Shown here: positions 3,201 through 40,900 of the stretch, piece by piece
Layout: the number at the start of each line of letters is the position of its first letter
Position numbering within the stretch: position 1 is the first letter of the stretch
Assembly: GCA_039621445.1 (NCBI GenBank)
Contig: CP154954.1
Location: forward strand, 8,062,634-8,126,633
DNA length: 64,000 nucleotides
Reading direction: 5' to 3'
Source of the DNA: Euglena gracilis
Taxonomy: Eukaryota
Made by a program: the position numbers and the translations under genes
Notes under the pieces: model-generated
Told to the model about the DNA's origin: nothing
The model's input: only the letters and a program-made list of their open reading frames with translations
The model's database searches: none

Positions 3201-6200
3201 CAGGACGAGGCTGGCCGCCAGGGGCTTCAGGGCTGCCTGCACGACCTCCGCGGTTGAGATCAGGTTTCTTCGAGGGATGAGGCGGGGGAGAGGGTGGGAC
3301 CGCATTGGGCCAAACCGGTGTGGGGTTTAGTCAGAGTTGTAGGAGATGACTTTTGTAGGTCAGTCTTTATTCAGCCTCCTCCTCCCCTTGGGGGGACAAC
3401 AAACGATTTGTTGCATCCTTGACCACCGTCCTCGTGCCAGCACCGACGAACGGGGGGGGGGGCTTAAAAGGGGCCAACCGAAAAACCGCCTGGCCGGGGC
3501 GGCCAGCCCGCGGCGCAGGATGGCGGCCAGCAGCCGCAGGCACGCCACCTTCTCCGGGATGTCCTTGCAGCCGTTGAACGCCGCCACCACCTCCCGGAGG
3601 GCCTCCTGCGGGACCCAGCACAGCGGTGTGGTGCAGCGATGCCAGCGTCTGGTGCCTTTCCCTCCACACAATCCGGACAAAAATGGTGGGAAACCAGAAA
3701 GACGTGGAAAAGTGGGAAGGACGACTTATGTTTCTCGACTCTTTATATATCAGTTCATGGCGTTTTTGGGGAAAATGCATCGGCTGTTTGGAAGAATTGT
3801 TTTCAGTACAAGCACAATGAATCCTGCCGTTTCCCCCACATTGTTTTTTCTGCCTCTTTCTCCGCTCGGACGAGAGTGTGAGAGACAGATATACACATAC
3901 ATGCGTATAATATATATATATATATATATATTATATATTATATATTATACATATGGGCATTTGATGATTTTCTCATAACTTTTCAGTTGTCATTTTTTTG
4001 AATTATGCCAGAAAAAACTTCCTTTTTGTCTAAATGCCAACTCCCCTTGAAAGCAGCTGCCAATTTTGTCCTTGTGTTTCTTCATCGTTTCGCTCTCTCT
4101 CCCTTGGGTACGAAGTGAAAGAGACCCTTGAGGGATACCCCAGCCCCAAGCGCTGGAAAAAATCAGAAGGCTTCAAACATGCCTTTTAAAAAATCGTGTT
4201 CTCAAAACCTCTGTTTAAAAGAGAAAATATGTTAAACTTTTCAGCAAAAAGTGCAAATTTGGTGGTCCCGGATACTCCCTCGGTCACACCAAGGGTCGTC
4301 CCAGGTCTCCCCTTGGTGAGTACACGCGACGTTGCACCAACATGACGATCATTACAGGTCATGACGAAGTTGTTTGCACGCATGCACACAACACTATGAA
4401 AAGGACCGAGATGCATGCATGGACCTTGGAGTCACTCTGCGGAAACCAATCAATCACATTTTTTGCTCGAAGAAATAAAAAAGCCAGTCCGTCACTACCC
4501 CCCCCCCCCGGGGGCACTTTGGGGTCCAGGGGAGATTGGCCACAAATGTGAAGAAAATGGCCTTTAAAAAATCGGTGCCTTCGGCGCCGGGTCACCTCGG
4601 TGTTTATTGCCGACCCCCCACCCAAGGGGAGGGGTGTGGGCCGAAACCCAGTCGGTCACTCTGAAAACCCAGTCAGCCACCCCCTCCCTGGGGGGGGGGG
4701 GGTCGGCCCGTGACCAAGTGATTGTATGCCACAGACCCATGCCCAGAAGGACCAACAACACCCGGCACACACCGCCGCCAGGTCGGGCTCAGCGGTGGCG
4801 CAGCACAGGGTGAGGCAGGCGGCGCTGGCCACGGCGCTGATGTCCGCCTCCCGCACCCCCAGGGCCAGGGGCCGGGCGAGCTCCTTCGTCGGGGGAAGGC
4901 CTTCGCGGGGTCAGCACTGGGCGGGGGATCGTCTGGCAGCGTTTCCGTCGTTGGTGGCTGCTTGCTAGAAGAAGCCACCCAAGGTTTTTTCCCGCACTTT
5001 TTGTCTGATCTAATTACATTGTATTATTTTTTACACACTTTGATTACATTATTTTTACGCATAGTTCTCATGCACTTTGCTCCTATTTTTTGGTATTATT
5101 TTTAATTACTATCTGTCGTTTATCATTTTTATTCCCGCATTTTCAGCCCCATTTTCCAATTCTTTGTTCCTGTCATTTTACCCATAAAAACTTCCTTACC
5201 AGCTGGTCAAGGTCGAAGGCCCTTCCTCCACAGGGGGTCCTTCAGCCTGGCCCAAGTGGGGCCCATTGCCCACCCGCCTCCAGCGAAGGCCAGGGCGGGA
5301 GGCTCAGCAGGGCGGGGGGCAGGGCTTGCAGCACGGCGGCCACCGCGGGGATGGTGCCGTGCGACGCCTTGCGCAGTGCCTGAGGGGGCGGCGGGGGGGG
5401 GGGGGGGCGAGGGCTTGTGCCGGGTGATGTGCCCCGTGTCAAACTTCCGTTCTCGAACGTATATGGGCGGGTGAGAAATCTGGGAAAGGAAATTGGCCGC
5501 GCCGCAGCTCGGGGTGGGCCGACCGGCAACGCTACCCCCCCCCCAAGCCCCGCCAGAGTTCGGATGGCAAACTCCCTGGGAGGCCTCTTTCAGCCGGTAC
5601 GGGACGAATTTGGGGCGGGGGGTGTGTGTCCGTGCGACTAACCGCCATCGGCCGGGACGCGCGGCGCGGCCCCGGGCCCCCAGACCGCGGCCCACACACC
5701 TGCGCCATGCCGGGCAGCAGCGCCGCCGCGTACTGCGCCGCCGTGACGGCCGCCCACGGCCCCGGGGCCGCCGCCACCCGCCGCCACACCGCCCAGTCCG
5801 CCGGCCCCTTCGTGTGCTGCAGCGCCGCGGCGACGCCCGCCAGCAGCGGCGCGGCGGCGGCGTCGGCGTCCGCGGGGGGGAGCCGGCGGGCGGGGGCCGG
5901 GGGCAGCAGCAGCAGGCACGCCGGCAGGAGGCGGGGGCAGGGGGCTGTGTTTACCGCAACACGCACACCAGAGGAAGCAGGAGAGCCAGGAACGTCGGTT
6001 TTGTTTAAAAATATTTATATATACATATATATTGTAAAATGTAAAAATATGTGATAACAAAAAGTAATAAAACAAAACAATATGTATCAAATTTCAACAA
6101 AAATATCGAATTTGAAATTTACGTTCAAACGAAAAATGCAAAAAAGTTCAATTTTCAGAAGCGGGACTTGTAAAGAAAACCAGCCATGTGGTAATGTTCT

Positions 6201-37900: not shown

Positions 37901-40900
37901 CCTGTTGAAAACAGCATATAGTACAAAAATAATTGGTACAACAAATTGAACAGCAATGACGTCAAAAAAAGATTAAAGAATCGAGATTCTTCAAAATATT
38001 AAGGTTTTTAATGTGCATTTTGAGGGTCTTTGAATCCCCTGCCCCACGCTTTGGATGCCCAAACAATATATTCCCTGGGCAGTTCTCTTGGGGGGTCTCT
38101 CTGCGGCTCTCTGCGACAGGTGGGTGGGGAGCGGAATGGGTTAGAGGTGGCGGAGAAAGGCAACTAGGAAAATGCGGTGCAAAGCAGCCCAGCCAAAACT
38201 CACGGGGCCTGAGTTTGAGTCCCTGCGGGGGGTCCGGGGCCTGGGCCGGCATGGTGTCCGGGGCGTAGAGGGAGAGGGCGGGGCTGGCCAGGCCGGGCGG
38301 CCCCTCGGGGGGCAGGCACTGGAGGGAGGGCGAGAAGACGGCCTGGACGTACTCCAGCGCCTGAGACGGGGGGCGGGAGCCCACCGTAACGACACGCCGG
38401 GGTGGGTGGGCGATACGCGCCAAACCGGCAGGCTGTGCACGGCCGAGAAATGATATCCCGTTCCAACGGCCCCGGCAGCAGGATGCTGGTTCAGGTCGGG
38501 CCGCTAAACTCTTACTGAAAGACTGTCTTCCGACCTATTTTCAGAAGCCATGAAAAAATATGTGTGGAGCAAACTGTAAGTGTCGGGATCATGTAGGCCG
38601 TTAAAAATAAAATAATAATAAAAAACAACAGGAAGATTGTCTTTGGGAAAAAGAATTTGACACACAATGGTCACGGGGGGGGGGCACCTGCTCCTCAGTC
38701 AAGAGGTGGGTCTGGTGGTGGGCGAGCAGGGTGCCCACCCGCAGCACCAGTGCCCCGGCGTCCCGCCCGGTGGCCACCAGCACGTCGCACTGCTTGCGCC
38801 GGGAAAGAAACATCTCAGGCAGGGAAACGCACTCGCGGTGGATCGGGCGGGCAGAAAGGGAAACCAATGATCCCAAATGCACAAATCAGCCAGAAATATA
38901 TATATATATATATATATATATATATATGTATGTATATATAATATTTTTAACATAAATTTTATAATATATAATATATGTTACATAAAACATGATATATTAT
39001 GTTATGTATAATACATAATATATGATACATAATGTATAATATATAATAATGATATATAATATATAATACATGATATATAATATATAATATATAATAATAT
39101 ATAATATGTAATATATAATGTATAATGTATTAATATATGATATATATATATAATATACAATATGTAATATAATGTATTTTGTATTAATATATAATATATC
39201 ATATGTAATATATTAATATATAATATATAATATATGGTATATAATATATAATATAAAATATGAAATTTAATGCATAATATGCAATGTATAATGTATAATG
39301 CATAATATATAATGTATAATGTGCAATAGACAATGTATAATGTATAATGCACAATATATAATGTACAATGTATAATGTTTCATGGATAATGCATAGTTTA
39401 TATATATAATGTATAGTATAATATATAATATATAATGTATTAAAAAATTAATGTATAATATTCTAATACATAACATATAATATAATACAATTATAATATA
39501 TAATGTGGTATGTAATTTATAATATATTTCATATAATGTATGGTATATGATATATAATACGTAACATATAATACATAATATATAAATACACAATCTATAA
39601 TATGTAATATGTAATATGTAATATGCAATATGCAATATGTAATATATATATATATATATATGAATAAAAACAACATGAAAAAAATCAGTCACAGTAATAA
39701 TGTTTTTCATTCATCCTGAAAAAAAAAATAGTAAAGAATACACCCAAAAAATATGCAAATTAGGATGCAAAAAGATTAAATTTTTAATTTAATTTTTACC
39801 GTTTAATTTATTTTTCATAATGTCCTAAACCACACAGAATTGACAATTATTATCAAAAAAAATCATGCGTGGATGCAGAGATGGGAGAGTGAGTTGAATT
39901 GTTGGTTGCACTGCATGAGGTGGAGCACGGTGGGCATGTGGCACTTTTGTCTTACCATTTCCTTGCAGGATTGGTTGCTGTCACAAAATCATATGTCAAA
40001 AGTCGGACAGTTTATTGAACACATGCAGAGCGAGAGCCCCCCCCCCCCAATCCATTGCTTTATTTGGGGTTTCAGAAAAATCTGCCCAAAAGAGTTTGCC
40101 AATTCTTGGGAGGAGCCGGATTTGGTTTTCTGTGCGACTGCGTGTCCTTCATTTTGATCCAAACAGCGAAACAACTTCGCTTCGCTTCGACTTCACTTCA
40201 CTTCGCTACTTCGTCCCAATGAAGAAGAACGATTGGGGAGAACATAATTTGACAGCGAGAACACTCGTCCCACACCAGCACTCCCCCCCAAAAAAGGAAC
40301 GTAGAGCCTTGAATAGCACAGCTTGGAATGGCACTGGTCGCTCATGGCTTCTCCTTTGAATTCCTTTTTCTTCATTTTGGGGGTTTCTTGCATTTGGGTG
40401 TCGGTCGGTTTGTTCCCAAAGGTTGCTTAAAGTGGGAACATTTGATTGAGTCCGTCAATCAAGTGGACGCACTTGATTGCCCGGCGCAGCCATAGACACA
40501 CTTATGGCCAGTTTCCCCCCCCCCCCATGACCCTGTCCTGGGGGGTCCTGGGGGGGGTCCTGGGGGGGTCCTGGGGGGGTCTTGGGGGGGTCCTGGGGGG
40601 GGGGGGTCCTGGGGGGGTCCTGGGGGGTCCTGGGGAGTCCTGGGGGGGGGTCCTGGGGGGGTCCTGGGGGGGTCCTGGGGGGTCCTGGGGGGTCCTGGGG
40701 GGGTCCTGGGGGGTCCTAGGGGGGTCCTGGGGGGGTCCTGGGGGGGTCCTGGGGGGGGGGACTGGCCATGTCTCCATAGACAAGGACCTTTGCCCAGGCT
40801 ACCCAAGAGCGGTCCCCGCCGGGCCGGAAATCGCGATCCGAAAGCCCCTGCGCCTGGTACTGGTGCTCCAGCACCACATCCGTGGCGGGGCGTCTCACGG

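Follow-up and report, generated by a model that had tools for sequence, protein, structure and literature searches.

Why are the nonconventional (NC) introns of euglenids cut at a set distance from a terminal helix, and does this distance tell us where the introns came from? The question is raised by a window of 64,000 nucleotides (nt) of Euglena gracilis DNA (assembly GCA_039621445.1, contig CP154954.1, positions 8,062,634 to 8,126,633; all coordinates below are those of the window), in which short minus-strand exons in G+C-rich nuclear DNA are interrupted by introns without GT-AG ends. An earlier note, made from the sequence alone, had listed ten such introns, all cut at 3 nt in front of a terminal stem and at 5 nt behind it, and had equated the sum of 8 nt with the length of the target-site duplication (TSD) made by hAT transposons. 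Both the origin of these introns and the enzyme that excises them are long-standing open questions, and Milanowski et al. (2014 and 2016) are reportedly also to be named for Euglena NC introns. The explanation that we consider probable, taken as a whole, is that NC introns and their 8-nt cut go back to the TSD of hAT-like elements with CAG...CTG ends. The window yields one clean example of this and four young elements with 8-bp TSDs; it gives no general proof.

The clean example is the intron at 19188-19605 (minus strand, like all introns given below). The exon directly downstream of it encodes a CCHC zinc knuckle (zf-CCHC_3, PF13917, E = 2.8e-6, Pfam). The intron begins with GGC-CAGGGGTTTTCT and finishes with AGAAAACCCCTG-GGCGG, before an exonic g. 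Without its eight spacer nucleotides it is a 410-bp element at 19193-19602, placed in a coding exon, with terminal inverted repeats (TIRs) of 12 perfect bp (CAGGGGTTTTCT) and a perfect 8-bp TSD (GCCCCGCC on the plus strand). The junction evidence from RNA covers positions 19009-34430 and comes from the contigs of two runs presumed to be RNA (X1 and X2) and from the raw reads of two RNA runs (X21 and X24). In these data, the joint 19184->19603, which skips 418 nt and can slide by 8, is found in contigs of X1 and X2, in 16 raw reads of X21 and in 3 of X24. What is missing from the mRNA is exactly the element plus 8 nt, an absence that was observed for this one element.

Instead of excision at the RNA level, an empty site could account for the same joint, the transcribed allele then being one without the insertion. 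Perfect TIRs and a perfect TSD indicate that 19193-19602 is young, so that it may be polymorphic, and both alleles of a nearby T/C position (20828) are present in the RNA. Yet the element has everything that published NC splicing requires (GGC, CAG, CTG, 5 nt and an exon-start purine; PMC12501133), and the joint is present in four of four runs, which come from four studies. An empty site therefore seems to us an improbable source of the joint, and we keep to excision from the transcript in what follows.

Elements of this kind were sought across the whole window by a scan that left splicing information unused and recorded, for inverted repeats 40-6000 nt apart, the exact flank repeats by length. 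The 1068 candidates with TIRs of at least 10 gave five flank repeats at n = 6 (two of them 8-bp-TSD elements shifted by one base, and two poly-G), one at n = 7, four at n = 8 and none at n = 9-12. By our estimate, an 8-mer would match exactly by chance with a probability of about 3e-5 per candidate, which means that about 0.1 were expected against the four found. Besides 19193-19602, these comprise a 470-bp element at 24039-24508 (TIR CAGGGTTCGATATAAGGA, 18 bp, starting CAGGG; perfect 8-bp TSD GATTAAAG), which is nested in a 2282-bp element at 23838-26119 (TIR CAAGCACCTA, 10 bp perfect, 13/14; perfect 8-bp TSD GGCAGGGG), and a 2344-bp element at 29307-31650 (TIR CAGGGATGGATGGGAAGCC, 19 bp, starting CAGGG; perfect 8-bp TSD GTACACCC), which carries a 161-bp tandem array. 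The first two lie within the intron at 23622-26252 and the third inside the intron at 28516-31868; since all three are inside introns, neither splicing nor coding selection explains their 8-bp repeat. Public-run depth over the large elements is in the thousands (2163-14732 for that at 29307-31650), against 13-145 over exons, so the two large elements are probably repeated families. The link to transposons proposed in the earlier note is supported at the DNA level by four elements with perfect 8-bp TSDs, one of which is the 19188 intron; the other nine introns carry no TSD signal.

Restricting the search to CAG ends, we found 8/8 flanks in 3 of 103 anchored pairs and no pair at 6-7/8. When two TIR mismatches were allowed, 3 of 161 CAG...CTG pairs had 8/8 flanks, the shifted control had none at 6 or above, and the remaining relaxed pairs matched this control; the lone 6/8 pair (22962-26498) spans 3537 nt and has 2 end mismatches. 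Another shift control was set aside, being inflated by tandem arrays and having a low-complexity filter that dropped two real TSDs. A marginal candidate for a fifth element, of 679 bp at 56204-56882, has a TIR of just 8 bp (TAGCATTG) and flanks that repeat 8 bp (GTACCATG), and is within chance: by our estimate, about 0.4 such cases are expected among 4704 candidates with 8-bp inverted repeats. When metagenomes were scanned with the 19-nt TIR, 8 single matches came back; their alignment to the window is limited to 20-24 nt, and we read these matches as chance. At 21294-21579, a 286-bp CAG...CTG pair (TIR 11/12, flanks 5/8, under no listed joint) is possibly a further element or intron. Once the nested elements are subtracted together with their TSDs, the intron at 23622-26252 would measure about 341 nt and that at 28516-31868 about 1001 nt. 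As judged from the sequence, NC introns appear to act as landing pads for TIR elements.

Eight-nucleotide repeats at a new Euglena intron have been accounted for in another way. In strain ACOI 323 of E. agilis, intron 4 of the gene gapC is strain-specific and a recent gain, and has eight-nucleotide direct repeats (PMC4770533). It resembles 19188-19605 in being a recent NC intron with such repeats and differs in that its authors read it as the outcome of break repair, the available text of that paper naming no TIR element or superfamily (PMC4770533). The repeats in our window could likewise result from double-strand-break repair, by the filling of staggered breaks or by microhomology, without any transposition. 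They flank, however, perfect TIRs of 10-19 bp; three of the four elements are inside introns, free of splicing or repair selection; all four repeats are 8 bp long, and no repeat of 9-12 was found; and two of the elements appear high-copy from public-run depth. Break repair thus appears highly unlikely here, and transposition remains the reading that we pursue.

Which transposons would these be? Structurally, hAT elements are marked by 8-bp TSDs and by termini of the form YARNG (PMC3014272). The CAGGG start of three of the four elements fits YARNG; 23838-26119, which starts CAAGC, does not. With their 8-bp TSDs, TIRs of 10-19 bp in all four cases and terminal CAGGG, the elements are like nonautonomous hAT elements of the Ds type or of the type of MITEs (miniature inverted-repeat transposable elements), and unlike these in that neither a transposase nor an autonomous copy is seen here, one end is CAAGC and the TSDs lack a consensus. 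Pfam scans of 20 open reading frames (ORFs) revealed no transposase: the 10 long ORFs at 45-61 kb matched no family, and the 10 minus-strand ORFs matched Rab3-GTPase_cat and zf-CCHC_3 only. From their TSDs and termini, the elements appear to be hAT-like and nonautonomous. Insertions of hAT elements have an nTnnnnAn-like target preference. This preference is not seen in the four TSDs, which share no evident target consensus.

The elements might instead belong to another superfamily with 8-bp TSDs, such as Merlin, in which case the name hAT would be wrong and the arithmetic would stand. Two Merlin families with 8-bp TSDs have been reported from E. gracilis (PMC8101967), no hAT transposase turned up among the 20 ORFs, and the CAAGC element falls outside YARNG. 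In all Merlin, however, the 5' TIR starts with GG (PMC8101967), a start not found in our elements, which begin with CAGGG (three) or CAAGC (one), and CAGGG conforms to the hAT motif (PMC3014272). We accordingly regard Merlin or a similar source as quite unlikely and continue to call the elements hAT-like.

How general, then, is the 3+5 cut among the introns of the locus? The coordinates of the ten listed introns were reproduced: each begins with N3 and a stem and finishes with a stem and N5, and in 10/10 the ends are not GT/GC-AG. Four of the ten are supported by direct RNA joints and one by exon length. Besides 19188-19605, direct joints were found for three introns in the 3+5 register. The intron at 19651-20737 (GCG-CAGGGCGG...CCGCCCTG-GCACC before a; flank identity 1/8) has the joint 19650->20738, with a slide of 0, in 18 reads of X21, 3 of X24 and contigs of X1 and X2. 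That at 23622-26252, which has a CCG...CGG stem (GGC-CCGGCCG...CGGTCGG-CAGCC before a; flanks 1/8) and holds the two nested elements described above, has the joint 23621->26253, also with a slide of 0, in 8 reads of X21, 1 read of X24 and contigs. The third, at 33219-34201 (stem GAGGGG/CCTCTC; flanks 4/8), has the joint 33217->34201 with a slide of 2 and lies in the gene of the Rab3GAP catalytic subunit, PF13890 being found on the neighbouring exon. For the intron at 28516-31868 (GGC-CTG...CAG-GGGCC before c; flanks 3/8), which contains the nested 2344-bp element, no joint is listed, repeats at its ends being skipped, and support comes from length only: in a 2841-nt contig, positions 681-837 between neighbouring joints make 157 nt, the length that the cut in the earlier note predicts from exon stretches of 88 + 69 nt. 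The reading frame is open across its joined exons.

The other five claimed introns are at 3256-3495 (GGC-CAG...CTG-ATCTC before a; flanks 3/8), 5933-6640 (GAG-CAG...CTG-CCCCC before g; 3/8), 9266-9678 (GCC-CAGGCCT...AGGCCTG-CCCCC before a; 5/8), 13303-14307 (GGC-CAG...CTG-AGGCT before g; 2/8) and 40504-40767 (GGC-CAGT...ACTG-GCCAT before a; 4/8). In-frame joins had been offered as evidence for all ten. At 13303 and 40504 this evidence is weak, since a stop codon follows 17 and 16 codons past the join, respectively, and 40504-40767 consists nearly entirely of an 11-nt tandem repeat. Protein searches with the exon translations found no spliced product; their one match was a genomic read-through ORF (P0001) in the 9266 region.

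Four further non-GT/GC-AG introns, all absent from the earlier note, are verified by RNA. The NC intron at 26327-26806 has a CGG...CTG stem, flanks of 4/8 and the joint 26326->26807 (slide 3), and takes the 3+5 register after a 1-nt slide. For the remaining three, spacers were read by hand from the intron ends; spacers from duplex folding were not used, because the G+C-rich spacers pair with each other. The NC intron at 31938-32306 (helix CGCCGCATC/GATGTGGCG; joint 31937->32307, slide 1), the removal of which is in frame, has spacers that sum to 7. In the non-GT-AG intron at 23072-23592 (joint 23071->23593, slide 2), the best helix, GCA-CCCGGCCTG / CAGGCCGGG-TGC, leaves 3+6 = 9. The CAG...CTG intron at 22598-22849 lies in the 3' untranslated region (3'UTR) of Rab3GAP, as the stop codon is in exon 22850-23071. 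The RNA record has one other letter at its joint, so that the allele or strain transcribed is unlike the window there; with a skip of 252 nt the spacers total 7, and with this letter retained they total 6. In the 3'UTR there is no reading frame for this intron's removal to restore. Overall, the spacers sum to 8 in 6 of the 9 RNA-verified non-GT/GC-AG introns between 19 and 34.4 kb, the others giving 7, 9 and 6. The 3+5 geometry is thus real, and the claim that it is invariant does not hold.

The spacing around the CAG/CTG stem is real but is an already published code. Knock-in mutagenesis gave Nomura et al. (2025) the code 5'-N3CDG-/-CH'GN5-6, followed across the junction by R, in which the required 5' spacer is 3 nt and the best 3' spacer 5 nt; synthetic introns work, and only CDG/CH'G and the spacers are needed (PMC12501133). 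In a review, CAG/CTG at +4..+6 and -8..-6 are called 'TIR' and the junction repeats 'TSD-like' (PMC11282704). Eight of the ten claimed introns have N3 + CDG and CH'G + N5-6 ends (seven CAG/CTG and one CTG/CAG), and the downstream exon starts with a purine in nine, 28516 having C. The other two, 23622-26252 (CCG/CGG) and 33219-34201 (GAG/CTC), both RNA-verified in the 3+5 register, are natural exceptions to the code. Over 14 introns, matched ends have a duplex energy of -24.3 kcal/mol and mismatched pairings of introns one of -14.2 (sd 6.3). The uninterrupted stem runs amount to 3-7 pairs (G-U allowed) in 9 of 11 introns.

Taken together, the ten features look like euglenid NC introns. They share with those of Euglena the non-GT-AG ends, CAG at +4..+6 and CTG at -8..-6, spacers of 3 and 5 nt, the purine at the exon start, the terminal base pairing and the presence of GT-AG introns in the same gene; they differ in the CCG/CGG and GAG/CTC stems of two verified introns and in a first base that is always G. 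This G is found in 11/11 introns of the 3+5 register, and GGC comes first in 6/11, where the published spacer is N3. A pyrimidine is followed by a purine at both junctions in 10/11, and in 3/11 pairing is possible between the 5' GGC and the final three bases of the intron, with a 2-nt bulge left over.

If the introns began as insertions, older ones might retain decayed duplications, and the earlier note had read the graded similarity of the flanks as an age series of decaying TSDs. The identities on which it relied are exact on recomputation (8/8 at 19188, 5/8 at 9266, 4/8 at 40504 and 1-4 elsewhere), and run 3, 3, 5, 2, 8, 1, 1, 3, 4 and 4 of 8 in coordinate order. As a null we permuted the pairing of left and right flanks, which keeps the position-specific composition, i.e., the pyrimidine-purine step at both junctions. 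Against permuted pairs, the ten introns give P = 0.18. Apart from 19188, the flanks are at the level of permuted pairs, so 5/8 and 4/8 are chance values. The signal is carried by 19188 only, and the window shows no age series. Given the small sample, an old TSD origin of the other introns may still hold.

Several observations weigh against the proposed origin, in addition to the possible empty site at 19188, the lack of a transposase among the scanned ORFs and of the hAT target preference in the four TSDs. Without 19188, the nine remaining introns have a mean identity of 2.89 against 2.99 of 8 (P = 0.65), and the five transcript-verified ones 2.6 against 2.8. In this window, then, only 19188 exceeds chance relative to the shuffled pairs, and the expected correlation between flank identity and stem perfection is absent (rho 0.36, P = 0.28; rho 0.13 without 19188). 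Among the 161 relaxed CAG...CTG pairs, 7/8 is not represented and 6/8 only once. Three verified NC introns of the same gene sum to 7, 9 and 6, and the two exceptions to the code do not have CAG-type ends. Finally, each of the four elements occurs just once in the 64-kb window, as judged by self-BLAST.

Much of this would be expected if the 3/5 geometry were set by the cutting enzyme itself and most NC introns had an origin other than transposons, so that for the bulk of them the equality of 8 and 8 would be a coincidence, or a filter, without historical meaning, and 19188 would be an element that suits the code by chance. Chance-level flanks in nine of ten claimed introns, the verified sums of 7, 9 and 6, the many short stems (runs of 3-7 pairs in 9/11 introns) and a code that needs only CDG/CH'G and spacers and works with synthetic introns (PMC12501133) all speak for it. 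Yet the four perfect TSDs are all of 8 bp, three of these elements have the CAG...CTG termini on which the splicing code depends, the published new intron has 8-nt repeats (PMC4770533), and 69.1% of E. agilis NC introns are slidable (PMC12501133) against about 44% that we estimate for random sequence. A mere coincidence is therefore somewhat unlikely in our assessment, and we return to the derivation of the cut from the TSD after a brief account of the rest of the locus.

The gene between the RNA-verified introns is identified by exon 32307-32479, which encodes part of a Rab3GAP catalytic subunit (Rab3-GTPase_cat, PF13890, E = 4.7e-12, Pfam). It also contains conventional introns with RNA joints, two with GT-AG ends (26920-27927, where the joint reads CT..AC on the plus strand, and 28088-28427) and one with GC-AG ends (32480-33091). 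RNA and window differ by about 2% in exon 22850-23071, and differing sites are numerous across 20828, 22912-23036 and 23313-23771; the public runs contain diverged alleles or strains. Among the 15 joints listed of 161 (RNA, 19009-34430), none is a back-joint at the ends of any intron. Hundreds of raw RNA reads break in poly-G at 28591-28609 and 29366-29386, and at these two sites a joint that goes back 796 is found in 450 reads of X21. These breaks and the joint look like an artefact of sequencing or of the poly-G tracts, and not like circular RNA. The window further contains a (CAGG)32 repeat at 10978-11105, (AATCAG)24 followed by (AAG)43 at 18712-19008, a (TG/CGTG)n repeat at 34386-34803, an A+T-rich 7-nt array at 38895-39667 and, at its end (62.4-64 kb), a tandem array with a unit of roughly 50-160 nt.

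How would splicing undo an insertion? By the published code, a non-spliceosomal machinery cuts at a distance of 3 nt on the upstream and 5 nt on the downstream side of a terminal helix of the CAG/CTG type. When an element with CAG...CTG ends lands in an exon, the pre-mRNA would read TSD-CAG...CTG-TSD; cuts at -3 and +5 would take out the element together with one TSD copy, and TSD positions 1-5 would be rejoined to positions 6-8, giving back the original sequence. Because the element and exactly one TSD copy would be removed, the reading frame from before the insertion would be restored. That the 8-base footprint of the young elements equals the eight extra bases removed supports, without proving, the idea that splicing erases insertions. 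Older NC introns would have arisen in the same way, with TSDs that can no longer be detected, and the equality of the two lengths would be causal, through a filter on the insertions that survive or through co-adaptation. Because of the -3/+5 offset, the hairpin would be excised with an overhang of 2 nt at its 3' end, as with an enzyme of the RNase III type. This fits a published RNase III proposal, made beside one for a route derived from tRNA splicing (PMC12621601). Given a stagger of 2 nt, a total of 8 can be reached by the split 3/5 only. We suggest more tentatively, and at less than even confidence, that the machinery works as a fixed ruler fitted to transposons of the hAT-like kind and would delete every exonic insertion of this sort from the mRNA; elements that exploit a set geometry of the enzyme would look the same in sequence.

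Among the closest parallels are introner elements and other transposon-derived introns (Micromonas, dinoflagellates, Fritillaria), in which, likewise, an exonic TIR transposon with its TSD is lost from the mRNA and the TSD helps to define the cut (PMC11282704). It is the spliceosome that excises those introns, using splice signals that come from the element or the TSD (PMC11282704), whereas here the rule is a non-GT-AG one measured from a helix, and the fixed spacers account for the whole length of the TSD. Much of the material is already in print: the geometry, the idea of a MITE origin of NC introns (suggested in PMC12501133), the TSD-like repeats and one 8-nt repeat. In the text of the literature consulted, no paper links NC introns to hAT or equates 3+5 with the TSD length, although figures or supplements may show an 8-nt mode (e.g., the sliding-distance plot of PMC12501133 or Table S3 of PMC4770533), and we found there no description of CAGGG elements with 8-bp TSDs in a euglenid genome. 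The equation of 3+5 with the TSD length is thus a useful, testable synthesis and not a new system.

If the spacer sum is set by one class of transposons, the question of the origin of NC introns would turn into a genome-wide count of 8-nt junction repeats and a search for non-genic copies of the families and for their autonomous partner. The published knock-in assay could then be applied to an element with 7-, 8- and 9-bp duplications, and the 2-nt offset would narrow the search for the nuclease. NC introns make up 71.8% of all introns in E. agilis (PMC12501133), and a ruler that erases insertions from the mRNA would, if true, explain how they became the majority of Euglena introns.

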